A stretch of DNA of 64,000 nucleotides, taken from contig JAETOL010000014.1 of assembly GCA_021771755.1 (NCBI GenBank), positions 4,751 to 68,750 of the forward strand, written 5' to 3'. This document shows, piece after piece, positions 13,208-64,000 of this stretch (its first letter is position 1; every line of letters starts with the position of its first letter). The notes beneath the pieces were generated by a model, which saw only the letters and a list, made by a program, of their open reading frames with translations, was not told the DNA's origin and did not search any database. The translations under genes were made by a program, and so were the position numbers. Source of the stretch: Lachnospiraceae bacterium (GTDB lineage Bacteria > Bacillota > Clostridia > Lachnospirales > Lachnospiraceae).

Positions 13208-13233
13208 TTCTGCCTCCATACATCAGCTATAAT

Positions 13234-14052: not shown

Positions 14053-14055
14053 AAC

Positions 14056-14550: not shown

Positions 14551-15431
14551 TTTCTGTTACCTCCTGCAAGTTCTACGGTACGGATCAGCGCCCTCTTTGC
14601 AATCTCTCCGCCAATCTGAAGACGGAATTCTCTGGAAGCTCTCCAGGAATCTCTCGGGCTGATCTCCTGACGAATACTTTCTTCTATCGTCTGATACAGT
14701 TTTTCATCCACAGGCATTCCCTTTAAGGCAGCTTCTGTTTTTTCACATCGGAAAGGAACCGGAGCCGCTACGCCAAAGGTAATGCGTACATCTTCCAGAA
14801 TATTTTTTTCTGTATCCACCCTGCTTACTACAGAACAGCTCAGGGTAGCGATATCCATGGCTTTACGCATGGAATATTTAATATAATGACCGTGATATCC
14901 CTGGTATTCTTCTGCAGGAATGATCACATGGGTCAGGATCTCTCCCCGTTTCAGATCCACACGGCCCGGTCCCAGATAAAACTCTTTTACCGGAACGGTT
15001 CTTCCTCCGTTTCCATCTTCAATACGAAGAAGGGCGTTCAGAGAAAATACTGTCGGCGCACTGTCTGCACTGACTGCACCATTGCAGATGTTTCCTCCAA
15101 TCGTACCGATATTACGGATCTGAGGACCTCCAACCTGATCTACTGCTTCTCCAAGGACCGGAATACATTCCTGTATGATCGGATCATTTGTAATATGAGA
15201 AAACGTGGTGCCTGCACCGATATAAATATCTCCGTTTTCTTTTTTACTTATACCCTGGATTTCTTTAATATCACGGATACAGACAAGAGAAGTACCCGCC
15301 ATCTTTCCTTCCCGGATTTTGATCAGGACATCACTTCCTCCGGAAATGATCCTGGAATCCGGATGTTCTCTCAGAAGTGCTGCCGCCTCTTCAACAGATT
15401 TTGCATTATAGTAGTTTTCAATATCATACAT
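14547..15431 (-). CDS. xdhB: Xanthine dehydrogenase-family FAD-binding subunit
   Basis: FAD_binding_5 motifs (ISGGSDVL, GTIGGNI) plus the CO-dehydrogenase flavoprotein C-terminal domain. RBS is AAGGGGGAA. Confidence 0.85.
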   Translation of the reverse strand: MYDIENYYNAKSVEEAAALLREHPDSRIISGGSDVLIKIREGKMAGTSLVCIRDIKEIQGISKKENGDIYIGAGTTFSHITNDPIIQECIPVLGEAVDQVGGPQIRNIGTIGGNICNGAVSADSAPTVFSLNALLRIEDGNGGRTVPVKEFYLGPGRVDLKRGEILTHVIIPAEEYQGYHGHYIKYSMRKAMDIATLSCSVVSRVDTEKNILEDVRITFGVAAPVPFRCEKTEAALKGMPVDEKLYQTIEESIRQEISPRDSWRASREFRLQIGGEIAKRALIRTVELAGGNRK

Positions 15432-15447
15432 AAAACAGTTCCCCCTT

Positions 15448-17724: not shown

Positions 17725-17789
17725 CTCTTCACCTTCTTTTCTTTTTTTCTGCATGGATCCTGACAAGCCATCTGAGTACAGCTTTTCTC

Positions 17790-17947
17790 CATTTGGATAT
17801 AGAAAAAGCCGGACTACATCCCAGGAGTTTGTGTTCCCCTCAGGACGATTGTCCGGCTCCGAACCATGCTACTTTCTTATAATGTGCCTCCTGAGTTTCT
17901 GTGAAAACATCAGGAACATTCGCTTTTATTTATTTTAACATATTATA
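17790..17947 (-). promoter_or_regulatory. Structured leader, possibly with an internal promoter, upstream of xdhA (candidate attenuator or riboswitch)
   Basis: On the minus strand there is a TATAAT (plus 17942..17947), then a long hairpin AAUGU-UCCUGA...UCAGGA-GGC-ACAUU. This is followed by GGAGCCGGAC...GUCCGGCUUUUU, a terminator-like stem plus U-run enclosing mutually complementary UCCUGAGGGG/CUCCUGGG segments. Confidence 0.35.
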
Positions 17948-17985
17948 AGAAATATTTCCATTGATTTTTGTGAATTTTTATTAAT

Positions 17986-18450
17986 TTATTTTGAAATAAT
18001 TCCTCTGGTATCTGCAATCACATTCCGCGGGCATTTTACTGCGCAGTTTCCGCAGGCAAGGCAAAGCTCGTCATTGATCAGCGCCACATTATCTGTGACT
18101 GCGACCGCATCTGCCGGACAGTTCTTTGCACAGATTCCACAGCCGATACAGCTGACATCACAGGCCTTTCTCGCTGCAGCCCCCTTATCCTTATTAGAAC
18201 ATTTTACAAGGAACGGGTTATCTGTAAGATGGATGTGAATAATATCCTGAGGACATGCTTTTACGCAAAGGCCGCAGCCGATGCACTTGCTTTCGTCAAT
18301 TTCAGCCACTCCATATGCATTATAGAAAATGGCGTCCTTTCTGCAGGCCTCCATACAGGAGGAACAGCTCATACAGCCATAGGAACAGCTCTGGCAGCGT
18401 TCCCCGCCGTTACATGCAACATAAGCCGTCTTTTTTGGAAATCTTGCCAT
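17986..18450 (-). CDS. Poly-ferredoxin (multiple 4Fe-4S cluster motifs, RnfB C-terminus-like)
   Basis: Three canonical CxxCxxCxxxCP motifs (CIGCGLCVKACP, CIGCGICAKNCP, CLACGNCAVKCP) plus an N-terminal Cys-rich stretch. The start lies 3 nt after the xdhD stop. Confidence 0.8.
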   Translation of the reverse strand: MARFPKKTAYVACNGGERCQSCSYGCMSCSSCMEACRKDAIFYNAYGVAEIDESKCIGCGLCVKACPQDIIHIHLTDNPFLVKCSNKDKGAAARKACDVSCIGCGICAKNCPADAVAVTDNVALINDELCLACGNCAVKCPRNVIADTRGIISK

Positions 18451-18453
18451 GGA

Positions 18454-29103: not shown

Positions 29104-29523
29104 TTATTTTCCTGTTGTAAAAACAAAAAATTTACTGAATACATAATTTAACGCAAGAACAATGAACTGAGTCGCAAATTTCCCCAGCATATCGTTCATA
29201 TGCAGTACCTCCACCAGAAGCCAGACTCCTCCCACTTCTATGATCATGGTCACAAGACGGGCACTGATAAATTTTATAAAAGGCTGTACATGGTCCTTTA
29301 AGGTTTCACACTTATCCTGAAAAACAAATTTCGAGTTCACCACATATGCAAACAGGATCGCTGTAATGATAGATATGAGATTGGCAACGGTCAGCTGTAC
29401 ATTCAGTTTTCTCAGCACATAAAAACATACCAGATTCACCAGCGTTGTACATCCGCCAAAAAATACATATCTGATCATATCATTTCTGTAAAACCGAAGG
29501 ATCAATTGTTTCATCTTATCCAT
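29104..29523 (-). CDS. GtrA family membrane protein
   Basis: 139 aa, 4 TM segments, and GtrA-like N-terminus (RYVFFGGCTTLVNL). Confidence 0.8.
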   Translation of the reverse strand: MDKMKQLILRFYRNDMIRYVFFGGCTTLVNLVCFYVLRKLNVQLTVANLISIITAILFAYVVNSKFVFQDKCETLKDHVQPFIKFISARLVTMIIEVGGVWLLVEVLHMNDMLGKFATQFIVLALNYVFSKFFVFTTGK

Positions 29524-29613
29524 TTCCTGCTCCTGTATTTTTCTGTTTCTTCCATTTACAAGTCTCTGTATATTTACAAGCCTGAAAATCCTGTATTTTC
29601 ACAGCCGAAAATT

Positions 29614-30573
29614 TCATACAGAATCATGTCGTGCATGTTCCGATACATCCTGACTGCCTCTGATGATCCGGGAAATGATATATCGGGGACGCCGCTTTAT
29701 CTCCTCATAAATCTTGGCAATATAATAGCCAATGATCCCCAGACTCAGCATGATCGCACTTCCTATTAAAAGGAGTACCATCAGGATTGTTGTGTATCCT
29801 TCCACTGCATGACCGGTAAAATACTGGATCAATGAATATATGATCAAAATCAATGACAGAAGAAAGCAGATTCCTCCTCCCACTGTTACAAACTGCAGCG
29901 GAACCGTAGTAAATGCTACAATATTCGTAAATGCATATTTTACAAGAGACCAGGTAGACCATTTCGATTCCCCGGCTTCTCTTTCCTGAACCTCAAACTG
30001 AACAGATGTCGTTTTATATCCCACCCAGGAAGAAGTCGCACGGAAAAACATATTTCTCTCCGGCATGGAAAGAATACTGTCAACTGCCTTTCGGTCCATC
30101 AATTTAAAGTCCGAGGCATTCTGCATATTTACACTTGTGGCTTTTGACATGATCCCGTAAAAAAATCCCGCACATTTTTTGTGGATCAGGCTTTCCTTTC
30201 CTCTGGTTGTTTTAACGCCTTCTATCACCTCGTAGCCCTGCTGCCAGAGGCGATACATTTCCACCAGTGCCTGCGGCGGATGCTGAAGATCACAGTCCAT
30301 CACCGCCACTGCATCACCGGATGCCTGAGCAAGGCCTGCAAAAACAGCTGCTTCTTTTCCGAAATTCCTGGAAAATTCAACGCCCAGAATATGAGGATCC
30401 TCTGCTCCCGCTTTCTGAATCTCTTCCCAGGTCCGATCCCGGGATCCGTCGTTGACCAGTACCAGTTCGTACGCAATCTCCGCTTCTGTCAAAACCTGTT
30501 TCAGAACACGGCAGGTTTTTTTAATCATAAGTTCTTCGTTATACGCAGGAAGAACCACTGATAATAGACTCAT
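29614..30573 (-). CDS. Family 2 glycosyltransferase (polyprenyl-phosphate sugar transferase, GtrB/CsbB-like, with two C-terminal TM segments)
   Basis: LSVVLPAYNEE, NDGSRD and DCDLQHPP motifs with a C-terminal TM pair. The start overlaps the yfhO stop (ATGA). Confidence 0.85.
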   Translation of the reverse strand: MSLLSVVLPAYNEELMIKKTCRVLKQVLTEAEIAYELVLVNDGSRDRTWEEIQKAGAEDPHILGVEFSRNFGKEAAVFAGLAQASGDAVAVMDCDLQHPPQALVEMYRLWQQGYEVIEGVKTTRGKESLIHKKCAGFFYGIMSKATSVNMQNASDFKLMDRKAVDSILSMPERNMFFRATSSWVGYKTTSVQFEVQEREAGESKWSTWSLVKYAFTNIVAFTTVPLQFVTVGGGICFLLSLILIIYSLIQYFTGHAVEGYTTILMVLLLIGSAIMLSLGIIGYYIAKIYEEIKRRPRYIISRIIRGSQDVSEHARHDSV

Positions 30574-33341
30574 ATTTTCTGTACCTTCTTTTTACTTTTT
30601 CTAAAAAATACCAGACAAATGTAACATAACGCTCCTGTTAAAGTCAAGCACAGTCCCGGAATCAAAAACGGGGTACCGTACACCAGTTCAATCTCATGCG
30701 CTCCTTCTTCCAGCATCAGTCCCATATACATGGTATTTGCCTGCAGAATCTCCGTTTCTTTTCCGTCTACATATGCCCGGAATCCTTTGCTGTACGGAAG
30801 AGACAGCACCAAAGCCTTTGGTTCGGATAAAGTTATTTTTCCTGTTATCCCGTTTGTATCTATAGAAACATCTGTAAGAACTTCTTTTTTTAGATTTTCT
30901 GTCTGTTCGTTAATTTTATCCATAGGCTGACATACGATTCGAAGATCGTCAAACGTATAGATTCCCGTCTTTTCAAAAGTAAGTGTAATAGATTTTTTCC
31001 CGTTTTTCCCATACCCTGTATTACATAAAAAATCATGTTTTCCGCTGTATGCATTATATTTATCTGTAAAAATACGGATGGTTTTATCCGGAAACTGTCC
31101 CCCTACTGTAATAGACGCCTTTTGACTTTCTTTCCAGTAACGCCAATGGCTGTCTTCATGTATCACCTTATTTTTTTCATAACGGGACATTTTTTCCCAT
31201 TTTTTATCGCTGACTGTCTCGCGTGGAGAAATCCCATCGTAATCAAGGCCCTCTGCAATCAAATACGTTTCACTGTTTTCCAGACCATCAAAGAGCAGTT
31301 CCATTTCTGCGCCTTCTTTTGTCACTTTGATTTTTCCGTCCTTTAAACTGCAGCCCTTCCCTTTCTTTATCTCGTATGGAATCTCCTGATCCAGAAACTC
31401 CGGTTCTGCCTCAGGCAGCGGACATTCTTCTGCCACGATCCCCTGAAGAAGCGCCTGTTGTTTTTCTGTGACACTCATTTTATCATATTTTTCACGAGAG
31501 ATAAACGCATCATAAGTATAGCCTAGCGGAAGAACATCTTTGTTTTCAAAAGCCTCATAGATCTTTCCATTTTTCTCTGCGCTTCCGGTAAGCCAGTAAT
31601 AGCCATAGGGAAGATAACGATACTCTCCATTTTTTGTCACAAAATATTTCACAGAAGCCAGACGGTCAAGGATCGTTCTTCCATCCAGATTCTCATAATG
31701 CTGCTCCCAGGGCGTGTTCAGATACATTTCGTCAAAAAAGCTTCCAATGCTGCTGCTCGCCACACTAAAATAATAAGCTGTATTGTTCGTCCCCATCTGC
31801 ATGGAGGAATTATCATAAGAAAGCGCGTCCATCTGATCATAGCGAAAAACAGAGTTATCATCTGTATCAAGAACAGCAAGATCTGTGCCAGCCTCCAGCT
31901 TTTCCATCGCCATTCCTCTGTCCGTAAATTCAGAAAGGTAATTTTTTTCGTAGGAATACTGATAATAAATATTAAATACAATACCTGCAGTCAGAAGTAC
32001 ACTGATCATCATACAAAGATTTCTTTTTCTCACAAATATCGATCCATACAAAAGGATTACTGCTGTTGAAAAAACCAGAAGAATCATAGCAGACATATTT
32101 CTCTCTGTCCGAGCAACTTCCGGATACAAAGCCAGGCAGCAATATATCATAAGAAGAAGAAACACTCCTCTTTTTTCTGTTCTGTCCAATTGGGGAAATT
32201 CCGGGTATGTTTTCACAAAAATATAAGCAATCATCATACCATATGCCCAGATCCAACGATTAGACACATAAGAAAAACCATTTAATACATGACCTGCAAA
32301 AGGCAGGAGTAAAAATATATTCAAAAGTACAAAGCCCCATTTCAGGGCTGTATTTTTTTTTCGTTTTGAAAAAAGAACAAAAACACCTGTCATGGCCACT
32401 GCCGTATATCCGGCAACGCCCCACTGGATCATATTTTCACCAATCAGACAAGTCAGATATTTTTCGTAATATATCCTGTCATAAAGTACCGGCACGTAAT
32501 TTTCTGCCTGAAACCGTCCGGTTCCAAATACCGGAAGGATCACCGGAAGAAGAATCACCGCAGCCAAAAGTACCGCAATCACAGAATATCCGGCAAAAAC
32601 AGCCAGCCACTTTCCAATACACCGGATACTTCTCTCCTTTTTTTCCGAAAACACCACAAAATAGTCAAAAGCCGCATAAAGTACCATGAAAATTCCCAAC
32701 ATATAAAAGAAATAAAAATTCGATACTCCGGCAAGTGCTACTGACCAGATAAACACGTACGGCTTTTCTTTTCGATATATTTTGTCTATCCCCAAAAGAA
32801 TCAACGGCAAATAGATCATAGGATTCGCAAAATACGGATGTTTCATAGACGCATAGATGGTCCATCCTGCAAAAATATAAACAAGAGAGCCCAGAAGGGT
32901 GGCCTGTTTGGAATTTTTGTGATAAAAGCAATATCGGCTGAAAGCAATCCCAGCCAGATAAATTCTTAAAAATATCAGGAAAGCATATAAATACTCTGTT
33001 TTTTCTGCCGGAACAAATACGGATAGTAAAGTCAGAGGATCACCGATCACATAATAATGCAAAGTTGTCAGTATATCGGATCCATATCCAATGTGCATAT
33101 CCCACATAGGTATTTCCAGTTTATGTTCTATAAACAACCGGTGCAGGATCTCTCTCAGATAATCCCCATAATATGCCAGTGAATTCAAATGCTGAGGAAC
33201 TCCGTCATGGCTCCATATCAGCGATTTTCCATTCAGAAAAAAGTGCATATAAAGAATCAGCGCAATAGCACCAAATGCCAGAGTATAAATCAAATAATAG
33301 TCTGTTCTTCTTTTGGTAAAACACTTTTTTTTCATTTTCAT
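30570..33341 (-). CDS. YfhO family polytopic membrane glycosyltransferase
   Basis: About 920 aa, with more than 12 N-terminal TM segments, a large extracytoplasmic C-terminal domain and one terminal TM. ATG 33341 follows AGAGGAAA; the ORF-track start 33374 lies inside the nifJ terminator hairpin. Confidence 0.8.
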   Translation of the reverse strand: MKMKKKCFTKRRTDYYLIYTLAFGAIALILYMHFFLNGKSLIWSHDGVPQHLNSLAYYGDYLREILHRLFIEHKLEIPMWDMHIGYGSDILTTLHYYVIGDPLTLLSVFVPAEKTEYLYAFLIFLRIYLAGIAFSRYCFYHKNSKQATLLGSLVYIFAGWTIYASMKHPYFANPMIYLPLILLGIDKIYRKEKPYVFIWSVALAGVSNFYFFYMLGIFMVLYAAFDYFVVFSEKKERSIRCIGKWLAVFAGYSVIAVLLAAVILLPVILPVFGTGRFQAENYVPVLYDRIYYEKYLTCLIGENMIQWGVAGYTAVAMTGVFVLFSKRKKNTALKWGFVLLNIFLLLPFAGHVLNGFSYVSNRWIWAYGMMIAYIFVKTYPEFPQLDRTEKRGVFLLLMIYCCLALYPEVARTERNMSAMILLVFSTAVILLYGSIFVRKRNLCMMISVLLTAGIVFNIYYQYSYEKNYLSEFTDRGMAMEKLEAGTDLAVLDTDDNSVFRYDQMDALSYDNSSMQMGTNNTAYYFSVASSSIGSFFDEMYLNTPWEQHYENLDGRTILDRLASVKYFVTKNGEYRYLPYGYYWLTGSAEKNGKIYEAFENKDVLPLGYTYDAFISREKYDKMSVTEKQQALLQGIVAEECPLPEAEPEFLDQEIPYEIKKGKGCSLKDGKIKVTKEGAEMELLFDGLENSETYLIAEGLDYDGISPRETVSDKKWEKMSRYEKNKVIHEDSHWRYWKESQKASITVGGQFPDKTIRIFTDKYNAYSGKHDFLCNTGYGKNGKKSITLTFEKTGIYTFDDLRIVCQPMDKINEQTENLKKEVLTDVSIDTNGITGKITLSEPKALVLSLPYSKGFRAYVDGKETEILQANTMYMGLMLEEGAHEIELVYGTPFLIPGLCLTLTGALCYICLVFFRKSKKKVQKI

Positions 33342-33354
33342 AATAATATTTCCT

Positions 33355-33389
33355 CTAAAAAAGCCGCGGTACAATAAGTACCGCGGCTC
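33355..33389 (-). terminator. Rho-independent terminator after nifJ
   Basis: On the minus strand: GAGCCGCGGTAC-TTATT-GTACCGCGGCT followed by TTTTTT. Confidence 0.8.
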
Positions 33390-48604: not shown

Positions 48605-49831
48605 TTAAGATGTTTTCTGCAAGTCGCTGTAGGTTGTCCCTGTCTGCAGCTGGACTCCATTGATTTCTGCAAGCTTATGAACAGTTACAAACTGATAACC
48701 TTCTTTGATCATTTCCGGAATAAAAATTTCTGCCGCATCTACAGAGGTACTAAAAATATCATGCATAAGAATAATCGAACCATCTTTGGCCTGAGAACGA
48801 ACAATTTCTGCGATCTGCTGAGGATTCTGACTTTCCCAGTCCAGAGTATCGACAGACCAAAGTACCATTGGTGTTCCAACAACCGATTTTACAGAGGAAT
48901 TCACAGATCCATAAGGTGGTCGTACCACAGTAGCTCCCTGCCCGGTAAGCTTTACAAGAAGTTCGTCTACAGCACCTATCTCCGCGGATATATCCTCCGG
49001 TGATAAATTGGTAAGATCTGCATGAGAATATGAATGATTTCCCAATTCGCAGCCCAATTCTTTCATTCTCTTTACTTCATCAGAAAAATATTCAATTTCT
49101 TTTCCTACCATAAAAAAAGTAGCTTTTGCTTTGTTTTTTTCCAGACAGTCCAAAAGTCTGTCTGTAAAAGAGCTTGGACCATCATCAAAGGTCAGAGCCA
49201 CATATTTTTTTTCCTTTTTTTCAGGAACTTTGGTGGGCTCTGCCTTTGGTGCTTCTGTCTGTTCAGGGACGTCGGTCTGTTTAGGAGCTTCTGACTTCTT
49301 TTCTGAAGAGTAATCTTTCAGAGAGCCATCCGCCTGAAGTTCATAGCTTTTTCCGCCGGTTGTAATAAAACCAGTCTGCATAATTCCGTCCAGATCCATA
49401 AAATAACGTTTTCCGCCATCGTCTACCCAACCAGTCTGCATGATTCCATCCTGATTGAAAAAGTATCTTTTTCCATCTGTATCAGTAAGCCATCCTTTGT
49501 AAGGAGCCCCATTGACCATAAACATCCAGTTGCTTCCGCTGGATGTCCAGACACCTGTGGAGGCTTCTGGGGATATCTCATATATAGCAGGTGACACTGT
49601 AGGAGCTGCTGTTGGTGAAGGTGATGTCTGTACAACAGGCGTTTCTTCTGGCGTTTCTTTTTTATGAGACGGTTCTTCGTCATTTTCCTTTGCCGCAAAC
49701 AATTGGATGGTATCATTTTGAAGCTTTGAAGGAATCGCTGTTGACTGACGAAACAGATATCCGCATCCAAAACAGAGTAGTATAGAAATCAGAAGCAGAA
49801 AAATATTTGTCCGCTTATTGCCGCCTGGCAT
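48605..49831 (-). CDS. Polysaccharide (peptidoglycan GlcNAc-type) deacetylase with N-terminal cell-wall-binding repeats
   Basis: NodB-domain motifs (ALTFDDGP, HSYSH, RPPYG) are preceded by three choline/glucan-binding-type repeats (GWLTDTDGKRYFFNQDGIMQTGWVDDGGKRYFMDLDGIMQTGF). Confidence 0.85.
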   Translation of the reverse strand: MPGGNKRTNIFLLLISILLCFGCGYLFRQSTAIPSKLQNDTIQLFAAKENDEEPSHKKETPEETPVVQTSPSPTAAPTVSPAIYEISPEASTGVWTSSGSNWMFMVNGAPYKGWLTDTDGKRYFFNQDGIMQTGWVDDGGKRYFMDLDGIMQTGFITTGGKSYELQADGSLKDYSSEKKSEAPKQTDVPEQTEAPKAEPTKVPEKKEKKYVALTFDDGPSSFTDRLLDCLEKNKAKATFFMVGKEIEYFSDEVKRMKELGCELGNHSYSHADLTNLSPEDISAEIGAVDELLVKLTGQGATVVRPPYGSVNSSVKSVVGTPMVLWSVDTLDWESQNPQQIAEIVRSQAKDGSIILMHDIFSTSVDAAEIFIPEMIKEGYQFVTVHKLAEINGVQLQTGTTYSDLQKTS

Positions 49832-52702: not shown

Positions 52703-53635
52703 ATGCCAATTAAAATACAGAGTGATCTGCCCGTAAAAGAGATTTTGGAAAAAGAAAACATCTTTGTCATGGACGAGGGAAGAGCCGTCCATCAGGATAT
52801 TCGTCCGATCCAGATCCTGATTCTGAATCTGATGCCTTTAAAGGAAGAAACCGAACTTCAGCTTCTGAGATCACTTTCCAATACTCCTCTGCAGGTAGAT
52901 GTTACCTTTATGGCAGTAGAAAGCCATGTTGCTAAAAACACCTCAAAAAGTCATTTAAATAAATTTTATCAGACATTTTCTGAACTGAAGCATCTGCGTT
53001 TTGACGGAATGATCATCACAGGTGCTCCTGTGGAACAGATGGAGTTTGAGGAGGTTGATTACTGGAATGAGCTGACGGAAATTATGGACTGGACAGAATC
53101 TCATGTTACCTCTACCATTTTCCTTTGTTGGGCAGCTCAGGCGAGCCTTTATCATTTCTATGGTCTCCAAAAGAAAATGTTGGATAAAAAAATGTTTGGA
53201 CTTTTCTGGCATAAGGTTTTAAACCGCAAGGTTCCTCTCGTAAGAGGGTTTGACGATATGTTCCTTGCGCCTCATTCCAGACATACAGAAGTTCCAATTG
53301 ATGATATCCATGCCTGTAAAGAACTGACTGTCCTTGCAGAATCAAAAGAAGCCGGACTATTCCTTGCCATGGCAGAAGATGGCCGGAGAATCTTTGTTAT
53401 GGGACATCCTGAATATGATCGGATTACGCTTGATGGCGAATATAAACGAGACTCTGACAAAGGGCTTGCCATTGATATCCCGGAAAATTATTATCAGGAT
53501 AATGATCCACAAAACAAGCCGTTGCTTATGTGGCGCGCTCATGCAAACAACCTGTACACCAACTGGCTGAACTATTACGTTTACCAGAGCACCCCGTATG
53601 ACCTGATGGGGACTCCGGATTTTCGTTGTATTTAA
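52703..53635 (+). CDS. metA: Homoserine O-acyltransferase (MetA family; O-acetyl type expected in Clostridia)
   Basis: MPIKIQSDLP, ILILNLMP, the active-site region LCWAAQA, and GHPEYD. Confidence 0.9.
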   Translation: MPIKIQSDLPVKEILEKENIFVMDEGRAVHQDIRPIQILILNLMPLKEETELQLLRSLSNTPLQVDVTFMAVESHVAKNTSKSHLNKFYQTFSELKHLRFDGMIITGAPVEQMEFEEVDYWNELTEIMDWTESHVTSTIFLCWAAQASLYHFYGLQKKMLDKKMFGLFWHKVLNRKVPLVRGFDDMFLAPHSRHTEVPIDDIHACKELTVLAESKEAGLFLAMAEDGRRIFVMGHPEYDRITLDGEYKRDSDKGLAIDIPENYYQDNDPQNKPLLMWRAHANNLYTNWLNYYVYQSTPYDLMGTPDFRCI

Positions 53636-53853: not shown

Positions 53854-53900
53854 GGAGGCTACTGTGAAATAGATTACCCATCTATTTCACAGTAGTCTCC
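53854..53900. terminator. 47-nt near-perfect hairpin abutting the stop of the minus-strand gene
   Basis: GGAGGCTACTGTGAAATAGAT-TACCC-ATCTATTTCACAGTAGTCTCC, a 21-bp stem with one mismatch. No clean U-run on either side. Confidence 0.45.
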
Positions 53901-54722
53901 TTATTTAACTCCCCACTCCCAACGATCCAATAATGGGCTTCTGACTGCGTCTGCAGACACTCCTAAACGGTACAGACTGTAATTTCCCGCCGTTCCTACT
54001 TCCTGATATCCCTGGTTTTCCAGTTCTTTCTTCTGCTGCTCATTAGGAATTTTCACTACAAGATAATTACACAGGATTCTTTTTCCCACTGCCCCAATGT
54101 TCGTATAATTAAATACCGGTGCATTAATTTCCAAATACAGACGTCTCGCCCCTGCTCCAGCGTTTCCACGGCCTTCTCTGTTAAACATCATACAGATTGA
54201 GGGGTCATACACGCGAACATAAGGTCCTATATAATTGTCTGCTGCCAGAAGAAATTCCGAATCACCTGCATCTTTTTTTACCATTTCACAAATAGCAGCC
54301 ACTTCATCCGGTACCTGCTGATAATTATTTACCAGCTTATAGTTCCCGGCTGCATAAATTCCTCTTCCAGAATATGCAATCGCAGCTATTGCCAGCAGGA
54401 CAAGCCCAAACTGAATTCCTTTGTTTTTCCGTTCTTTCAAAAATTCTGTCATAGCAGCAGCAATTACCGGAATTGCCGGAAGAAGCCATAAGACACGCCA
54501 ATATACCGTTTTTCCAATACACTTCTGAATGAATTTTGCACTTATTGGGCAAAAAAACAGGATCAATACGACTGCAGTGTAGGGAATCAGATATTTTGTA
54601 CTTTTTTTATGCCTGCGAAATATCAAAAGATACAAAATAGAAAACACAAGCAGCCACATGACCAGACTTTTTCCCCAGTAATTATCCCAGAAGATTTTTG
54701 TCTGTTGAAAAATTTCTTTCAT
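53901..54722 (-). CDS. Hypothetical membrane protein (4 TM segments + extracytoplasmic C-terminal domain of about 150 aa)
   Basis: Hydrophobic N-terminal half and a soluble C-terminal half. It has its own RBS (CAGGAGGA), 13 nt after the upstream gene's stop. I recognised no family. Confidence 0.5.
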   Translation of the reverse strand: MKEIFQQTKIFWDNYWGKSLVMWLLVFSILYLLIFRRHKKSTKYLIPYTAVVLILFFCPISAKFIQKCIGKTVYWRVLWLLPAIPVIAAAMTEFLKERKNKGIQFGLVLLAIAAIAYSGRGIYAAGNYKLVNNYQQVPDEVAAICEMVKKDAGDSEFLLAADNYIGPYVRVYDPSICMMFNREGRGNAGAGARRLYLEINAPVFNYTNIGAVGKRILCNYLVVKIPNEQQKKELENQGYQEVGTAGNYSLYRLGVSADAVRSPLLDRWEWGVK

Positions 54723-54735
54723 TTTTGTCCTCCTG

Positions 54736-55764
54736 TCAGCCTATTAAAATATATGCAATGCCTAAAACAAAGGACGGCAGACAGCACAAAAGTCCTTTTC
54801 CCACTCTCTTCCAGTCTTTTCGCATCACTAGAGATACTGCCAGAAAACATCCCGTCATAATTGGAGCCAGAATAATGCCCATAGAGGACAAAAGGCAGCA
54901 GCTGATATTAGCCAGAAGAAGCGCAGTCCATGAATTTTTTCTTTGCTTCTCCAGAAGCATTGATATGCAAAGGCAAATCAGATAAGGAAGCAAAACAGAT
55001 GCAAGAACTGCCTTCCCCTGCCAGATTCGAACCATTTGAAAATTCCCTGCATTATATACGGAATATCCCGAAAAGCTACATATACAAGCTGCCAAAAGGA
55101 GATAAATATCTTTTGCTTTCTTTTCTCCGGAAAACCATTTTTCTCCAAGACAATACTGCACCATATATGCCATCGGAAGAAAGATCACAGGAAAAATCAT
55201 ATGAGCCATAATTGCCGGATGCAGTCCCCCGCTAAGCTGACTAACCACTGCCAGAAAAACAGGAAACGGAGAAAGTACATATCGTCTGGGCAGAATTCTA
55301 TACTCACATCCTGTATAAGGATCCACTGCAAAAATAGAATCCGTGTGTACATCGGTTGTTGCTGCCGCCACATAAAAACAATCATCCGCATCCATATGTG
55401 CCATAGCCGCACACATGAGTACTTGAAGGAGGATTACCACAACAGCCATCCAAAAATATATGGATGGCCGTTCCATTTTTTTTCGCAGATTTTTATTTCT
55501 GTTCTTTTTTTTCCATAACAATAAACCGGCCACTGCAAAGCCTGCTGCCAGACTCCCATACACTGCAGTCAGAACATGCAGCGGCATTTTCAGTAAGATC
55601 ATAGGAAGAACCAGAATTTCCATCATTGCAAAAAGTAGCAAATATCCATGAAGAAAAATTTCAGCAAATTTCAGCTGCCTTTTGCCTGTAAAAAGGATTC
55701 CTGCTGCAGCGGGAACTACTGCCAGCCACACCAGAGCCAGAACCCCTTTCATCACCATATCCAT
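54736..55764 (-). CDS. Hypothetical polytopic membrane protein (about 10 TM segments)
   Basis: 342 aa and strongly hydrophobic, with an acidic HMDADD loop after TM4. The ATG lies 1 nt after the stop of the XDH-family large-subunit gene. Confidence 0.5.
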   Translation of the reverse strand: MDMVMKGVLALVWLAVVPAAAGILFTGKRQLKFAEIFLHGYLLLFAMMEILVLPMILLKMPLHVLTAVYGSLAAGFAVAGLLLWKKKNRNKNLRKKMERPSIYFWMAVVVILLQVLMCAAMAHMDADDCFYVAAATTDVHTDSIFAVDPYTGCEYRILPRRYVLSPFPVFLAVVSQLSGGLHPAIMAHMIFPVIFLPMAYMVQYCLGEKWFSGEKKAKDIYLLLAACICSFSGYSVYNAGNFQMVRIWQGKAVLASVLLPYLICLCISMLLEKQRKNSWTALLLANISCCLLSSMGIILAPIMTGCFLAVSLVMRKDWKRVGKGLLCCLPSFVLGIAYILIG

Positions 55765-55765
55765 C

Positions 55766-58054
55766 TTACTTCTCCAGTTTCTGCTTCAGAATTCCCATAG
55801 CAACTTTTTCCGGAGTGATCGGAAGTTCCCTCACTCTTACTCCGGTTGCATTGTAGACTGCATCTGCAATTGCCGGACACGGAGTGTTGATAACCAGCTC
55901 TCCTATGGATTTTGCGCCAAATGGACCACTAGGTTCATAGCTTCCACGGATTTCCACCCGCACATCACCGATATCAAGACGAGAAGGAATCTTATACTGC
56001 ATAAAAGAATTGTTACGAATCTTTCCTTTTTCCGTGTATTGAACATCTTCATGAAGCGCCATACCAATACCCTGAACAATTCCACCTTCCGTCTGTACCC
56101 GTACAAGGTTTGGATTGATCGGTGTACCACAGTCTACTACCGCTGCATAGTCAATGACTTTGACGCTTCCTGTTTCTTTATCAACTTCTACTTCTGCCAT
56201 ACCTACCATAAACGGCGGCGGTGAAATCGGAGAACAATGGGTTCTGGTAACCTGAAGTTCCTGTGTATTTCCACAGGTTCCTTTTATCGCAACTTCTTTT
56301 AGTGAAACCTTATGTTCTTCATCTGTGAATACAAATTCCCCATCAAAATTTACTTCTTCCGGATTCACTTCCAGCATTTTTGCTCCCAGAGCACATATTT
56401 TTTTCCTCAGCTCCTGACATGCCTGAAAAACAGCCATTCCTGTTGTATAAGTAGTCGCTGATGCATAAGAACCTGAATCATAAGGAGAAATATCGGTATC
56501 TACACCAAATACCACAATATTTTCAATAGAAGTTTCCAGGCAATCTGCTGCTATCTGAGAAAGGATTGTATCACATCCGGTACCCATGTCTGTACATCCA
56601 AGGCCCAGGGTATAAGATCCGTCCTCATTCAGCTTCATATCTGCCCCGCCAACATCAATACCGGCAATTGAGGAACCCTGCATAGCCATAGCAACGCCTA
56701 CTCCTCTGACTTTTCCGTTTCCCATATCTTTATATGGATATTTTTCGTCCCAGTTCATCATTTCTTTGGCACGCTGCATACACTGATCCATCGTACAGCT
56801 AGGAGCTGTGATGCAATCCTGATATGCCGGAAGCGGTTCCCCTTCCATTGGCATATTCAGTTCACGCAATTTCACCGGATCCATCTTCATCATATGTGCA
56901 AGTTCATTTATCGCAGATTCCACTGCATAGATTCCCTGAGTAGCACCATATCCTCGGTATGCTCCTGCTGCCTGCACATTGGTGTAGACTACATCATATG
57001 CAAAACGATGCGCCTCCGTATGACGATAAAGGGCAATGGATTTATGTCCGCTTAAACCTACAGTTGTCGGACTATGCTCCCCATATGCCCCGGCATTGGA
57101 AAGAGTATAAACATCCAGGGCACGGACGATTCCATTCTCATCAGCACCAGCTCTTACGCGAATTTCCATTTCATGACGTGGAGAGGCACAGATCTGTGAT
57201 TCATAACGTGAATACAAAATTTTTGATGGGCGGCCTGTCATCCAGGTAACAAACGCAGGATAGATTTCTGTTACCGCTGTCTGTTTCGCTCCAAATCCGC
57301 CGCCGATTCTAGGTTTGATCACACGAATTTTCGAGGAAGGAATGTCCAGTGCATTCCCAAGAATTCTTCTTACATGAAATGGTACCTGTGTAGAAGAAAC
57401 CACATTCAATCGTCCAAAATAATCCTTATAACAATACGTACGGAAAGTTTCCATCATTGCCTGCTGATTTGCTTTTGTATGATAGGTACGATCTACCGTA
57501 TATTTACACTCTCCAAGAATTTTTTCCACATCACCGGATTCTTCCACTCCAGATGCACAAAGGTTTCTTTTGTTGTCTGCTCCTACCGGAATCTTTGCCT
57601 CCCAGTCCTCTTCTGGATGTACAAGGATTTTCCCATCCTTTGCCTTATGCATGTCAAGAACAGGCTCATCCACACGGTATTTTACCTTGATTCTTTTCAG
57701 AGCTTTTTCTGCGGCTGCCTCTGTTTCCGCTGCTACGATTGCAACTGCATCTCCAACAAATCTCAGTCTCTGATCCAGAATATAATGATCATAAGGACTC
57801 AATTCCGGATAGGTCTGACCCGCCAGAGTAAAACGTTTACGAGGCACATCCTTATATGTATAAACAGCCACAACACCGTTGACCTGCTTCGCTGTTCCTG
57901 TTTTAATTTCTTCGATCCAGGCATTTGCGTGAGGGCTTCGCAAAATTTTAACGATCAGACAATCTTTCGACGCCAGATCATTGGTAAATACCGGTTTTCC
58001 AGTTACCAGTGCCATCGCGTCTTTTTTTCTTACTGGCTTACTGACATAACTCAT
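55766..58054 (-). CDS. Xanthine dehydrogenase/aldehyde oxidase-family molybdopterin-binding subunit (second copy, substrate unknown)
   Basis: IGGGFGAKQ, the catalytic-Glu region SIGELVINTPCPAIADA, and N-terminal hammerhead (VTGKPVFTND). Confidence 0.85.
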   Translation of the reverse strand: MSYVSKPVRKKDAMALVTGKPVFTNDLASKDCLIVKILRSPHANAWIEEIKTGTAKQVNGVVAVYTYKDVPRKRFTLAGQTYPELSPYDHYILDQRLRFVGDAVAIVAAETEAAAEKALKRIKVKYRVDEPVLDMHKAKDGKILVHPEEDWEAKIPVGADNKRNLCASGVEESGDVEKILGECKYTVDRTYHTKANQQAMMETFRTYCYKDYFGRLNVVSSTQVPFHVRRILGNALDIPSSKIRVIKPRIGGGFGAKQTAVTEIYPAFVTWMTGRPSKILYSRYESQICASPRHEMEIRVRAGADENGIVRALDVYTLSNAGAYGEHSPTTVGLSGHKSIALYRHTEAHRFAYDVVYTNVQAAGAYRGYGATQGIYAVESAINELAHMMKMDPVKLRELNMPMEGEPLPAYQDCITAPSCTMDQCMQRAKEMMNWDEKYPYKDMGNGKVRGVGVAMAMQGSSIAGIDVGGADMKLNEDGSYTLGLGCTDMGTGCDTILSQIAADCLETSIENIVVFGVDTDISPYDSGSYASATTYTTGMAVFQACQELRKKICALGAKMLEVNPEEVNFDGEFVFTDEEHKVSLKEVAIKGTCGNTQELQVTRTHCSPISPPPFMVGMAEVEVDKETGSVKVIDYAAVVDCGTPINPNLVRVQTEGGIVQGIGMALHEDVQYTEKGKIRNNSFMQYKIPSRLDIGDVRVEIRGSYEPSGPFGAKSIGELVINTPCPAIADAVYNATGVRVRELPITPEKVAMGILKQKLEK

Positions 58055-58530
58055 TCTTCTGCCTCCTCCCTCTTCTTTGTTTTTTTATACTCGAGATATT
58101 TCAGGATACTCCTTGTTTGTCCCACAAATCCGGAACATCTGCAAAGATTTCCCGCAAGATACTCTTTGATTTCTTCTTCCGTCGGATCCTCCAGTTCATT
58201 TTCCATAGCAAAAATATTCATGATAAATCCCGGGTTACAAAATCCGCACTGTTCTGCACCTTCATCCGCCAGAAACGCCCCAAATTCCTCTGCTTCTTTC
58301 TGCATTCCTTCCATTGTCACAATTTTCTTGCCCTCTGCGCGAAGAGCAAGCATACTGCAGGAAAGAACCGGTTTGCCATCCATCAGTACTGTACACAGTC
58401 CGCAGTTAGAAGTTTCACAACCACACTTAACACTGTAACAGCCTTTTTCTCTCAAAAAGTCCAGAAGCATCGTATCTGGTTCTACTTCTTCATGACGATA
58501 AACCCCATTCAGCCAAAAACTCAGATTCAT
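58051..58530 (-). CDS. [2Fe-2S]-binding small subunit of the second XDH-family enzyme
   Basis: CETSNCGLCTV and CGFCNPG...CRCSGF. It overlaps both neighbours by 4 nt. Confidence 0.85.
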   Translation of the reverse strand: MNLSFWLNGVYRHEEVEPDTMLLDFLREKGCYSVKCGCETSNCGLCTVLMDGKPVLSCSMLALRAEGKKIVTMEGMQKEAEEFGAFLADEGAEQCGFCNPGFIMNIFAMENELEDPTEEEIKEYLAGNLCRCSGFVGQTRSILKYLEYKKTKKREEAEE

Positions 58531-59339
58531 TTTTCTATCCCTCCTAATGTTTCCCAGGCTCTTCTGGTCAATACTTCGGTAAGGAGCCTGCGATATTCTC
58601 CGGATCCACGCATATTACTGCCAACCGGTACATTTTCTGCTGCATATTCAGAAAATCTGCGCGCAGCCTCTGTTTTTTCTTTTTTCGACATTTCTGTGAA
58701 TCCATAAAGAAAATCTTCCTTATCTTCTACCACCATAGCACAGCCAGGTCTTGCGCCGATCACCGTTCGTGGCTGTTCTCCGATCAGGGACACTGCACAG
58801 GTCAGAACAGGAAAATCTGTCTCTGTGTTTCTCTGACTGAGATAAATCGTTTTCAACGGTGTTTTCTTTACGATCACAGCCTGCAGTATATCTCTGTCTT
58901 TTTTCATTTTGACAAATTCAGCAAGAGGAACTCTCCCTGCCTGATAGAGGTCTACCCAGGTGTCCATAGCAAGGAACAAAGTCAGGACATCAGAAAATCC
59001 ATATCTTCCAAAAATACTGCCTCCAACTGTGGCGCAATTACGAAACTGTACTCCAACAATGTGACGAAGGCTTTCCCGGAGAGCCCCCTGGGTAAATGCA
59101 TCCAGAGATTTATTAATTTCCAGGTCGTGAAGCGTTGTCATACATCCGATCACATATTCATCCTCCAGTTCCTGAACGGTATCCAGCCCCAGACCCGAAA
59201 GATCGATCGCTGTGGAAACATTTCGATTTCCCATTTTCAGCCATATCATTCCTCCCAGAACACAGGCACTTTTTTTCTGATTCAGCTCGTAGGCTTCAGC
59301 AATACTGTTCACCTTCACATAGCTTTTAATCTTTAGCAT
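58527..59339 (-). CDS. FAD-binding subunit (CoxM/XdhB-like) of the second XDH-family enzyme
   Basis: FAD_binding_5-like (VLGGMIWL, ATVGGSIF) plus the CO-dehydrogenase flavoprotein C-terminal domain. Gene order is FAD-FeS-Mo. Confidence 0.8.
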   Translation of the reverse strand: MLKIKSYVKVNSIAEAYELNQKKSACVLGGMIWLKMGNRNVSTAIDLSGLGLDTVQELEDEYVIGCMTTLHDLEINKSLDAFTQGALRESLRHIVGVQFRNCATVGGSIFGRYGFSDVLTLFLAMDTWVDLYQAGRVPLAEFVKMKKDRDILQAVIVKKTPLKTIYLSQRNTETDFPVLTCAVSLIGEQPRTVIGARPGCAMVVEDKEDFLYGFTEMSKKEKTEAARRFSEYAAENVPVGSNMRGSGEYRRLLTEVLTRRAWETLGGIEK

Positions 59340-59537
59340 ATGAACTTCCTTTCTTTTATAAAACTATCTAAATAACAGATATACAGTTCTGCCCTGTTAA
59401 ATGGGCATACTTAATTTTAGTCTAACAGGTATTTTTTAAAAAAGCTATATTTTTTTTAAATATACGATTATAATATTCACCTAATATTCTTATTACGTAA
59501 AAGCCAGTCCGCTTCGTAGCGGATGCTGGTTTCCTCA

Positions 59538-59572
59538 TAAAAAAGACAGCTTATTCCTAAGCCGTCCTTTTT
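59538..59572 (-). terminator. Rho-independent terminator after leuA
   Basis: On the minus strand: GACGGCTTA-GGAA-TAAGCTGTC followed by TTTTTT. A second hairpin lies just downstream (plus 59504..59529). Confidence 0.65.
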
Positions 59573-59601
59573 AATATGATTTCTATAGAAAACTTTTTGA
59601 T

Positions 59602-62022: not shown

Positions 62023-64000
62023 TTATCTTATCGTATCTAATGTCTCATTATTTTTTATAATTGGAACAATATTTTCTACAAAACTATTATGAGAATATCC
62101 ATCGTAACGTTTTTTACGATTGTAAAATGTAAGAGAGGCATTTTTGTATTCCTGGCTGAGATCTGCTGTTCCATAAGCAATATCCTGAGGTCTGTTTCCA
62201 TACTGCGGGGTTCCCATATTTATGATATTTACATTGGATGTACCGGCTTCTGCTCTTTCCAGATAATAGCGAAGAACCTGTTTTTCGTATATTTTATAAT
62301 TTCCCAATGGAATTCCGGTTACCGTTACCGCCAGAACAGCATTTCCATTTCCATCCCTGGTATATCCGCCCGGAGTATAGACGACCGTTTCTTCATATTC
62401 TCTTTTCATTCCGTAACTATCTGTTCCTGTTATAACAAAAGAAAACGTAGGATTGCCATGTGCCCAGGTGATCTCTTCTTCTTTTATCTTTTTTATCACC
62501 GTAATCTGTCCCATCGGAAGCTGTTCCGGCTCATTTACTGCTTCCAGCTCCAAAATCTGACCATCTTTTTCAAGAACGATTTCCTTTTCCCAATTTCCAT
62601 GATAACCTTCCGGAGCTTTTCTTTCTCTGATCAGAAATTTACCTTTGTTATCCTTAGTGATCTCCAGATTTGAACAAATATAAAGCTTCCTGTCTCTATG
62701 GAATATAAAATCCTGTTTTTCTGCAGTTTCTGCATAATTTCCGTTTTTTTCACTCCATGCATACGCTTTAAATTCTGCTCCTGAAAGAATTTCTCCTGTT
62801 ATGGAATCCCTTTTTGTAATAAACACAGAGCCATATTTTCCCGGTATCGGATCATTTTTTACGTAAAACTGCAGCTGCACATTCGAATCGGAAAGGTTGA
62901 TTTCCTGACTCCATTCCCCCTGATATCCTTCTGGATTTTTCGTTTCCAAAATCTTGTATTTGCCAAGATTCTGATCTGTGATGAAAAGTTGTTCACTTCT
63001 GTACACACCGGAATTCATATCATATTCCAGAATTTTTCCTTTCGGACTGTAGTCATATATGGACTGATCCCATTCATAAATACAAAATTCTGCTCCCTGA
63101 AGGAAGGTCCCTGTCATAGAATCTATCTTTCGAATCTCCACTCGTTGTTCCTTCACCGGTGTATTTTCTACACGATAAAAGAAACTTCGATTTGTTCCAT
63201 TGTCCGTTAACACAAATTCCTGACTCCAGCTCCCGGTATATCCTGCCGGATTCTTTGTTTCTATGATCTTATATTTTCCCTGATTATTTTCACTATAGAT
63301 CAGACCGTCGGCTATATAACGCTTCTGATCTGCATGATAAATCAGCTGGCGTCCGTTTTCATACCTTCCCAATGTTTTATTCCATGTAAAAAGTGTAAAT
63401 TCTGCATCCGAAAGATGAACTTCTGTTCCCTCTGCCACTTTCTCTACAGATACCGCCCCTTGTATATCCGGGTCATTAGTCACATACACCGGTGTTGTTT
63501 TTCCTGCAGCAGCTGTACATGGAACAGTCACTGATGATATAAGATATCCCGGGGCTGCTGTTTTTTCTTTTATATAATAAGTTCCGGGTATCAGATCATT
63601 AAAAGTAATCTGTCCGTTTTCATTTGTAACAGCTTCTGCAACTATTGTATCTTTTTTGTACATCAGAACGCCTCCGCTGTATAAATCCTGCGCAGCATAT
63701 AAGGAGTATACCGCATCTTTTACCGGATTTCCTGTCTGCGAACAGGTTTTCTTTACAGTGATAACTCCCATTGGCTGGAAAGCCAGGTTTAATTTCAAAA
63801 GTCCTCTGTCTCCCTGATACACGCAGGCACCAAAATCCTGAATATCCATTCCTGTCTGAACAGATCCATCTACCAGAATATATTTAACTGGTCTAAGCAG
63901 CATTTTCCAGGAAAAATATTTGACACCTGAAGATTTCTTTGGATATACCACTCGAAAACAGTATCCATTTTTTAACTGCACACCTTTTCCCTTTTGCAGT
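62023..64000 (-). CDS. Large surface protein with tandem SpaA/Cna-B-type (prealbumin-fold) repeat domains; 5' end outside window
   Basis: At least four divergent modules of about 100 aa end in the G(K/T)Y.I.E.K(A/N)P.GY pattern. The frame is still open at base 64000. No LPXTG motif at the C-terminus. Confidence 0.7.
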   Translation of the reverse strand, partial: LQKGKGVQLKNGYCFRVVYPKKSSGVKYFSWKMLLRPVKYILVDGSVQTGMDIQDFGACVYQGDRGLLKLNLAFQPMGVITVKKTCSQTGNPVKDAVYSLYAAQDLYSGGVLMYKKDTIVAEAVTNENGQITFNDLIPGTYYIKEKTAAPGYLISSVTVPCTAAAGKTTPVYVTNDPDIQGAVSVEKVAEGTEVHLSDAEFTLFTWNKTLGRYENGRQLIYHADQKRYIADGLIYSENNQGKYKIIETKNPAGYTGSWSQEFVLTDNGTNRSFFYRVENTPVKEQRVEIRKIDSMTGTFLQGAEFCIYEWDQSIYDYSPKGKILEYDMNSGVYRSEQLFITDQNLGKYKILETKNPEGYQGEWSQEINLSDSNVQLQFYVKNDPIPGKYGSVFITKRDSITGEILSGAEFKAYAWSEKNGNYAETAEKQDFIFHRDRKLYICSNLEITKDNKGKFLIRERKAPEGYHGNWEKEIVLEKDGQILELEAVNEPEQLPMGQITVIKKIKEEEITWAHGNPTFSFVITGTDSYGMKREYEETVVYTPGGYTRDGNGNAVLAVTVTGIPLGNYKIYEKQVLRYYLERAEAGTSNVNIINMGTPQYGNRPQDIAYGTADLSQEYKNASLTFYNRKKRYDGYSHNSFVENIVPIIKNNETLDTIR

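Follow-up and report, generated by a model that had tools for sequence, protein, structure and literature searches.

A stretch of 64,000 nucleotides (nt) from contig JAETOL010000014.1 of a Blautia-like Lachnospiraceae bacterium, called the window below, contains a run of five minus-strand genes in which a three-subunit enzyme of the xanthine dehydrogenase (XDH) family is followed by two polytopic membrane proteins. The genes for the flavin adenine dinucleotide (FAD), iron-sulfur (FeS) and molybdopterin (Mo) subunits of the enzyme are referred to as the trio; the first membrane protein, of 342 amino acids (aa) and belonging to the family DUF6077, as P0001; and its 273-aa partner as P0002 or p273. 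L numbers denote the genome loci that were compared, G numbers genomes and X numbers runs of RNA libraries. The locus comprises the following features.

58527-59339, minus strand: XDH-family FAD-binding subunit, CoxM-like, 270 aa (PF00941 FAD_binding_5, 2.3e-21; PF03450 CO_deh_flav_C, 4.5e-06)
58051-58530, minus strand: XDH-family [2Fe-2S] subunit, CoxS-like, 159 aa (PF01799 Fer2_2, 1.4e-20; PF00111 Fer2)
55766-58054, minus strand: XDH-family molybdopterin subunit, CoxL-like, 762 aa (PF01315 Ald_Xan_dh_C, PF02738 MoCoBD_1, PF20256 MoCoBD_2)
54736-55764, minus strand: P0001, DUF6077, 342 aa (PF19554, 3e-110)
55381-55398, minus strand: codons H123-M-D125-A-D127-D128 of P0001, the acidic loop (residue conservation, P0001 model)
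53901-54722, minus strand: P0002, 273 aa, four membrane helices and an extracytoplasmic alpha/beta domain (model and fold matches)
59340-59601, minus strand: intergenic region 5' of the operon, with terminator-like hairpins of a leuA-like gene (sequence, site scan)
53854-53900, unstranded: hairpin (20-bp stem) where p273 and metA converge (site scan)

The open reading frames of the window place the five genes in the order FAD-FeS-Mo, P0001, P0002, and by their coordinates the FeS gene shares 4-nt overlaps with both the FAD and the Mo gene. Only 1 nt lies between the stop codon of the Mo gene and the start codon of P0001, the Mo/DUF6077 junction reading TAA-G-ATG, and the 13-nt spacer between P0001 and P0002 contains the sequence AGGAGG. 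A preliminary description of this DNA had already reported the gene order, the coordinates, the overlaps, the TAA-G-ATG junction and the 13-nt gap with its ribosome binding site, and was accurate at every point checked. Its idea of a link between trio and membrane genes would not have fitted a promoter or terminator between them; a site scan detected neither a promoter-like nor a terminator-like site at the Mo/DUF6077 junction. Upstream of the operon, the preceding leuA-like gene has a terminator-like site (59523-59508, minus strand), and the operon promoter probably lies within 59340-59601. Downstream, metA (52703-53635) is convergent with the last operon gene, and the 20-bp stem of the hairpin between them is near-perfect. 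On the plus strand a T-rich tract comes after this stem, the plus strand being the only one for which the scan reports the site, and on the minus strand an A-rich tract follows. The hairpin is a probable two-way terminator that may also be used by the minus-strand operon.

P0001 matches the Pfam family DUF6077 (PF19554), scoring 368.8 bits where the gathering cut-off is 27; the alignment pairs its residues 3-341 with positions 1-353 of the 354-position model. Among 1.84 billion representative proteins, 1832 match P0001 at E<=0.001, and none of the best 150 is longer than 369 aa. An alignment of 89 of these relatives shows no variation at D127, D128, R246, G250, K251 and P260, and D125 is shared by at least 90% of them. 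The AlphaFold model of P0001 (predicted local distance difference test score (pLDDT) 95.4, predicted template modelling score 0.93) has about ten membrane helices, as many as had been expected from the sequence, and consists of three extra N-terminal membrane helices followed by what corresponds to the conserved module of GT-C glycosyltransferases. The conserved module of GT-C_A enzymes has seven helices and carries the catalytic base on the helix that opens the first luminal loop (PMC13503287), and Gram-positive GT-C enzymes have a DxD-type motif in an outer loop (PMC8035078). In P0001 the HMDADD motif follows membrane helix 102-120 and leads into helix 127-141, which begins with D127 and D128. 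As helix 102-120 follows a strongly basic loop, WKKKNRNKNLRKKMER, the positive-inside rule suggests that the DD motif faces outward, which agrees with the preliminary description, where the acidic loop had been assigned to the outer face. Thus, the conserved acidic DxD-type residue of GT-C_A enzymes is found at the helix of the first, presumably outward-oriented, loop, and the loop with D127 and D128 is in the model a putative catalytic base and metal or phosphate site.

Of the 21 top rows that VIA-align, a comparison of structures independent of Foldseek, returns for the P0001 model, 19 are GT-C enzymes, with Z values of 10.9-6.2 over 195-236 aligned aa, residues ~94-342 pairing with the N-terminal ~230-310 residues of the targets. 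At the top are STT3B (Z 10.9; 229 aa, root mean square deviation 3.8), AftA (10.8; 236 aa), AglB (10.6) and PglB (10.5), followed by the PIG-M type structure 9wno_A (9.9), ALG6 (9.8), ALG3 and ArnT (9.1) and, in lower rows, by Pmt4, Pmt1/2, PimE, ALG12, PIG-U, DPY19, AftB, ALG9, AftD and EmbA/B; rows within 1 Z unit of each other count as tied. By VIA-align and the P0001 model, then, the seven-helix N-terminal conserved module of GT-C_A is present in P0001, Foldseek taken alone not being significant.

P0002 has no family match in Pfam or NCBIfam, and P0001 has none in NCBIfam either. The AlphaFold model of P0002 (pLDDT 90.4) shows the four membrane helices and, as C-terminal alpha/beta domain, the extracytoplasmic domain that had been proposed for it, and in 56 relatives W12, W16, P59, V73-Y74-W75-R76, W79, N133, P138, Y168 and V171 are invariant. 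Foldseek finds STT3 (6ezn_F, 7.4e-05), then DPY19 and AftA (4.4e-04), and VIA-align pairs P0002 with residues 271-488 of ALG12 (Z 9.3), 374-778 of AglB (Z 7.6) and 404-684 of DPY19, with STT3B (409-774), PglB (325-711) and ALG9 (300-600) as further targets. For the globular domain (residues ~135-255) the counterparts are the periplasmic domain of ArnT and, in AglB, PglB and STT3, the C-terminal domain. A search of the ESM Atlas returned unnamed clusters only, with AftA and DUF6541 rows at 0.87 that serve as leads only. In the predicted models, P0001 and P0002 therefore match complementary halves of the same GT-C enzymes.

That the two chains form one enzyme is also suggested by their occurrence elsewhere. 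A relative of P0002 lies directly 3' of the P0001 relative in 28 of 29 genome loci, the remaining one (L028) ending at a contig edge. Similarly, a gene of 246-297 aa without Pfam match follows DUF6077 in most of the other Lachnospiraceae loci; neighbouring genes were here taken as the longest non-overlapping frames, a crude procedure by which some starts may be wrong. In two loci the two halves are joined in a single chain, of 648 aa (L090) and 613 aa (L091), the N-terminal halves of which match P0001 (2e-21) and the C-terminal halves P0002 (8e-07 and 2e-09, respectively). Five more fused proteins of 614-649 aa, all with PF19554, were found in databases, and the P0002 family profile aligns with residues 386-633 of a 636-aa fused DUF6077 protein (hhalign probability 96.6%, E 6e-10, 229 columns). 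A frame of 736 aa in L098 (G162) was considered as a further fusion and rejected, as it has an N-terminal extension and is followed by a separate p273-like gene.

Prediction of a complex of P0001 and P0002 gave a score of 0.90, the best of three controls reaching 0.00; this mark is attained by 116 of 157 solved complexes and by 2 of 215 mismatched pairs. The runs agreed in at least 94% of the contacts, and the pLDDT of the partners was at least 86. The predicted interface is formed on the side of P0001 by the DD loop (121-129) and residues 227-260, including the region R246-K251, and on the side of P0002 by residues 73-80, 118-138 and 163-188, including the conserved YWR, N133, P138 and Y168-S175. 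By complex prediction, fused homologues and VIA-align, the C-terminal variable module of GT-C_A thus resides on the separate P0002 chain. The preliminary description had likened the two membrane proteins to a split large polytopic enzyme of the YfhO or GT-C type. The split enzyme is borne out by the complementary fold matches, the fused homologues and the complex prediction, and so is the GT-C type; YfhO drops out, neither protein having a Pfam match to PF09586 at E<=0.01. The same description had made the link to the hydroxylase dependent on structural models that do not match an unrelated housekeeping family, and on this point the link fared badly, as the models match GT-C glycosyltransferases.

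How does the pair compare with known GT-C enzymes? In solved structures the variable module forms the acceptor pocket at the boundary of the two modules. ALG12 and ALG9 (GT22), ALG3, ALG6, PIG-M and PimE resemble the pair in the order of modules, the acidic residue of the first loop and the outer C-terminal domain, and ALG9 and ALG12 have a variable module of four helices plus a luminal domain (PMC13503287). ALG12 is the best VIA-align match of P0002, and ALG6, ALG3 and ALG12 match P0001 at Z 9.8-7.9. In contrast to these GT-C_A enzymes, the pair consists of two polypeptides, the first with three added N-terminal helices, is bacterial and has no detectable sequence similarity to them. AftA (GT85, 8IF8) and STT3/AglB/PglB (GT66) are the best overall fold matches of both halves, yet they are single chains of 600-870 aa and their sequence identity to the pair is 8-13%. 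GPI mannosyltransferase I is likewise a GT-C complex of two proteins, Gpi14/PIG-M and Pbn1/PIG-X; there, Pbn1/PIG-X is reported to be an accessory subunit (PMC12653191), whereas P0002 would be the enzyme's own variable module. In Gram-positive bacteria the systems CsbB/GtcA/YfhO, GtlA/GtlB and the Gtr type contain an outward-facing GT-C enzyme with a DxD-type motif and decorate wall polymers from undecaprenyl phosphate (C55-P) sugars, YfhO-GT2-GtrA being the canonical three-component glycosylation system; a review also speculates that small GT-C enzymes need a second protein for acceptor binding (PMC8035078). The pair resembles these multi-component systems in that DUF6077 loci elsewhere adjoin GT2, GtrA and sugar-nucleotide genes, and differs from them in not being YfhO, PMT_2 or GtrII by Pfam, in being split in two and in adjoining an operon of the XDH family instead of GT2 or GtrA.

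A scan covered 32 other Lachnospiraceae DUF6077 loci, namely the 28 best, with the window locus and that of genome G039 omitted, and four chosen for their long frames. Sugar or envelope genes lie within 1.5 kb in 20 of the 32, the families scored being RmlA/C/D, NDP-sugar epimerase/dehydratase, UDP-glucose dehydrogenase, GT2, GT1, Bac_transf, GtrA, TagF-like Glyphos_transf, Wzt_C and Acyl_transf_3. Some of the remaining loci lie near further GT-C-like families of the DUF type or a choline-binding amidase. GT2 and GtrA neighbours occur in L066 and in L091, where a GT2-GtrA fusion gene lies upstream of the single-chain form. The window itself contains a complete set of the canonical type:

30570-33374, minus strand: YfhO, 934 aa (PF09586, 2e-106)
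29614-30573, minus strand: GT2, 319 aa (window scan)
29104-29523, minus strand: GtrA, 139 aa (window scan)

This YfhO-GT2-GtrA set shows that the genome can make and flip lipid-linked sugars. It lies (29104-33374) between the cobalamin-salvage genes CobT, CobU and CobS and a pyruvate:ferredoxin oxidoreductase gene. The wider region of the operon is flanked by a polysaccharide deacetylase with choline-binding repeats (48605-49831), a homologue of which lies near the pair in L018, and a SpaA-type surface protein with prealbumin-fold repeats (62023-63981). Two tandem copies of DUF6077 plus partner were observed in L071, L087 and L096 (G019, G041 and G124).

The sugar-gene neighbours of DUF6077 and the YfhO-GT2-GtrA set of the window make the transfer of a C55-P-linked sugar to a wall polymer at the outer face the likeliest mechanism. 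In the probable reading, chain 1 (P0001) contributes three extra helices and the seven-helix conserved module, in which the invariant D127-D128 of the first outer loop would act as catalytic base and as donor-phosphate or metal site, and chain 2 (P0002) contributes the variable module of four helices and an outer globular domain. The enzyme would take the sugar from a flipped polyprenyl-phosphate sugar at the outer face of the membrane and add it to a cell-wall glycopolymer, for example teichoic acid or a secondary wall polysaccharide. Alternatively, the GT-C fold might serve a different chemistry, that of a polymerase or ligase similar to Wzy, WaaL or oligosaccharyltransferases, or of a protein glycosyltransferase, and not that of a single-sugar decorator. 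The top fold matches do include oligosaccharyltransferases (STT3, AglB, PglB) and protein mannosyltransferases (Pmt, DPY19), and some DUF6077 loci adjoin Bac_transf priming enzymes and Wzt ABC exporters. However, fold rows within 1 Z unit are tied, an oligosaccharyltransferase motif of the WWDYG type was not seen, no search for it having been made, and the GT2 and GtrA neighbours in L066 and L091 fit a route with a monosaccharide donor. We regard such a different chemistry as rather unlikely, if worth keeping in mind.

The trio is a different matter. Its composition of FAD, 2Fe-2S and Mo-pterin subunits is common to XdhABC, HcrABC and CoxMSL, and its gene order is that of coxMSL. The top NCBIfam match of the Mo subunit is XdhA with 626 bits, below the cut-off of 780, and the FeS and FAD subunits reach 129.5 and 42.3 bits against equivalog cut-offs of 217 and 310, so that no subunit qualifies as an XdhABC equivalog, the wider XDH/CoxMSL domain composition being present. 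The top PDB match of the Mo subunit is the alpha subunit of 4-hydroxybenzoyl-CoA reductase (1rm6_A, 1.4e-89). An Enterocloster urolithin dehydroxylase, ucdCFO, suggested by abstracts as a possible relative of the trio, was dropped as a lead. The window holds three enzymes of the XDH family including the trio, the other two lying in one cluster:

11858-21018, minus strand: purine-hydroxylase cluster with a yqeC-mocA fusion, yqeB, xdhC, xdhB, xdhA, a small Fe-S protein and a selenium-dependent XDH

In this cluster the true xdhABC genes, in the order Mo-FAD-FeS, lie at 11858-17766 together with yqeB and the yqeC-mocA fusion, no copy of yqeB or yqeC adjoining the trio, as had been noted before. 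Unlike the trio, which is under every NCBIfam equivalog cut-off, they exceed all of these cut-offs with 1226, 443 and 249 bits; the selenium-dependent XDH scores 1327 bits. None of the three trio subunits has a membrane segment (maximum 19-residue hydropathy 1.38) or a signal-like N-terminus, which places their chemistry in the cytoplasm, whereas a GT-C active site faces outward. The trio is predicted to be a separate, soluble, cytoplasmic molybdenum hydroxylase.

The whole trio is present in 29 of 120 genomes (119 from other genera, plus G039 from the genus of the window), the Mo subunits being 56-75% identical, and this orphan hydroxylase has orthologues in about a quarter of the sampled Lachnospiraceae genera. 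The gene 3' of Mo was scanned in 24 of the 27 full-length trio loci from other genera: in 11 of the 24 it is YqeC and/or a MobA-like nucleoside triphosphate transferase of the MocA type, in 2 a phosphoribosyltransferase and in 1 a xanthine/uracil permease (L056). Loci with a MocA-like protein and/or YqeC behind the trio, sometimes accompanied by a phosphoribosyltransferase, are L034, L037, L040, L042, L044, L045, L051, L057, L058 and L059. These neighbours hint, as a weak pointer, at a purine-like substrate and a selenium-dependent cofactor for the trio.

The sequences, models and genome comparisons show the domains, the likeness of fold, the fused homologues, the conserved motifs and the neighbourhood statistics; from these we infer the complex, its membrane topology, donor and acceptor and the absence of coupling to the trio. 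The reading as a whole, that the pair is a split GT-C envelope glycosyltransferase of the GT-C_A type joined to an unrelated soluble operon of the XDH family, is in our judgement probable. The pair would have come to sit behind the trio in this Blautia genus, in the slot taken elsewhere by MocA or YqeC, and the arrangement would be explained without mechanistic coupling of trio and pair.

Several results speak against this reading, some of them touching the fold and others the separateness of pair and trio. Foldseek finds no match for the P0001 model in PDB at E<=0.001, its GT-C rows (AglB, EmbA/B) appearing only at probabilities of 0.80-0.96 with TMq ~0.4, and the P0001 family profile has 0 matches at E<=10 among PDB sequences. 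The VIA-align Z values of 9-11 are below the ~13 that helical bundles can reach by chance, so that the case for GT-C depends on how consistently the matches recur and how well they complement each other, not on one particular score. The halves of split proteins tend to pass the complex test through their likeness to solved single chains, and the complex score is thus better evidence for the fold analogy than for actual binding. Genes for glycan synthesis are absent from the flanks of the pair, both in the window and in 12 stand-alone pair loci that were scanned. Furthermore, linkage within the genus is strong. Among 60 other genomes of the genus, with a Mo orthologue counted at E<=1e-200, 51 have the Mo orthologue and 56 have DUF6077. 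Of the 51, 46 carry DUF6077 directly behind Mo: in 43 it lies within ~60 nt, and G122, G139 and G167 have a partial Mo match with DUF6077 no more than 700 nt away; contig breaks prevent a judgement of adjacency in G159 and G177. In G039 (L032:420-1478) the 1-nt junction is kept at a Mo identity of 75% with a DUF6077 protein that is 31% identical to that of the window, and this protein retains D127, R246, G250 and K251 and has Ala at the position of D128. Similarly low-scoring DUF6077 copies lie behind the trio in five more genomes of the genus (G127, G131, G144, G147 and G152), and such divergent copies result from either fast divergence in place or allele replacement. Since the junction is kept at 31% identity and is near-universal in the genus, selection for co-expression may apply.

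RNA libraries point in the same direction. All four runs are stored as contigs, from which transcript ends and expression levels are not readable. Contigs of two runs, which belong to one study, bridge the Mo/DUF6077 junction: record 3 of X3 (54382-56187) spans both this and the DUF6077/p273 junction, record 8 of X4 (54760-56216) the Mo/DUF6077 junction only. The genes are thus probably expressed together, and co-transcription of trio and membrane pair is likely. At the upstream border contigs stop at 59392 (X3) and 59336 (X4), near the predicted edge of the operon, and contig 7 of X4 stops at 53843, near the hairpin at 53854-53900; both are weak hints. In X1 a single contig of 13.6 kb, which may be DNA, takes in the entire region of the operon, and in X4 one contig leaves out 56010-56567.

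Co-expression could itself be the function, in the sense of a regulatory coupling of envelope glycosylation to the hydroxylase without physical or metabolic coupling. Consistent with this idea, the junction is kept at Mo identities of 72-96% while DUF6077 falls to about 31%. However, synteny at the level of a genus is expected by descent alone, and the link is broken in three genomes (G130, G141 and G162), where the Mo copy is 61-63% identical and DUF6077 lies elsewhere, as well as in six (G124, G126, G133, G134, G140 and G179) with the pair and without a Mo orthologue. Regulatory coupling as such is thus very unlikely. In G179 (L019/L094) and at L018:6907-8013 the pair lies behind lacZ and a DUF362 gene that overlaps the start of DUF6077, with an AraC regulator upstream, a second and different operon fusion of the pair.

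Beyond the genus the two modules go separate ways. Among the 29 trio genomes of the 120, DUF6077 is downstream of the trio only in G039, and it is adjacent (within 1.5 kb) in none of the 28 trio loci of other genera. DUF6077 exceeds the cut-off in 40 of the 120 genomes, and both modules are present in 7 versus 9.7 expected under independence; in 6 of these 7 they are apart, on different contigs or 360 kb away. Conversely, in 12 of the 29 pair loci the upstream flank, searched over 8 kb in eight of them and over 4.1 kb (L020), 3.9 kb (L021), 1.4 kb (L029) and 0.7 kb (L022, 720 nt) in the others, is free of Mo, FAD and FeS matches at E<=1e-3, the neighbours of such stand-alone pairs being DUF2284, HtrA, truA and maf, or lacZ and DUF362. 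Linkage across independent lineages, as in a functionally coupled gene cluster, is thus not seen, the adjacency being limited to one genus with 7 co-occurrences against 9.7. Of the synteny of the five-gene unit that the preliminary description had proposed to check, the part within the genus stands and the part beyond it does not. Since the adjacency is confined to Blautia, the pair is probably not part of the hydroxylase, and genome comparison presents trio and pair as independent modules that have been neighbours since the ancestor of most of the genus.

In a membrane-tethered hydroxylase, as had been proposed, the pair would anchor the FAD-FeS-Mo enzyme or, in a further version of the idea, pass its electrons to a membrane acceptor. 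The tight and probably translationally coupled Mo/DUF6077 junction, its presence in 46 of 51 genus genomes and the RNA contigs that cross it would fit a tethered complex. However, the pair has no match to a cofactor-binding family in Pfam or NCBIfam, its conserved residues are predicted to face outward and fit the catalytic geometry of GT-C enzymes, no membrane pair of this kind lies within 1.5 kb of the trio orthologues in 28 other genera, the pair occurs without the trio in 12 loci and six genus genomes, and the XDH subunits carry neither membrane segment nor export signal. The other proposal, a transporter or modifier of the substrate, would have the pair import, export or chemically modify the substrate or product of the hydroxylase, for which operon membership alone speaks. 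Against it, the fold is that of glycosyltransferases and not of transporters (the transporter rows that top the Foldseek search with P0001 by E-value have TM scores of ~0.17 and were rejected as noise), the modules do not co-occur beyond expectation, and in one other genus it is a real xanthine/uracil permease that lies behind the trio (L056). As the modules are widespread apart from each other and non-adjacent outside the genus in the genomes searched, neither proposal is supported; a tethered complex is extremely unlikely, and a role of the pair in handling the substrate is just as improbable.

What remains to be considered is a selected fusion, with regulation or metabolism linking envelope glycosylation in these Blautia to the substrate of the hydroxylase. 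If this were true, a host- or diet-derived heterocycle or phenol, for example, might signal a niche that needs a different surface coat; we consider it quite unlikely. More probably, the DUF6077 pair would be a natural two-chain GT-C enzyme, whose catalytic and acceptor modules are encoded by separate genes and might be exchanged one without the other.

A full-text literature search for 'DUF6077' found no paper that mentions the name. Neither the fold nor the likely role is new as such, both belonging to the GT-C enzymes of multi-component systems that glycosylate the envelope. What is added here is the assignment of DUF6077 and of a partner without a family name to this kind, and a natural split where the conserved module meets the variable one. 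The idea of a membrane-bound XDH complex loses support, and a fold and likely role are assigned to a protein pair that is common in gut Lachnospiraceae. The pair would exemplify the small GT-C enzyme needing a second protein for its acceptor on which a 2021 review (PMC8035078) speculates. At its fixed locus in the genus, DUF6077 varies between 31 and 87% identity, as compared to 72-96% for Mo. In abundant gut commensals, sensitivity to phages and recognition by the host are shaped by surface glycans, and a fast-diverging two-gene GT-C enzyme at a fixed locus is a candidate source of variation in these glycans.

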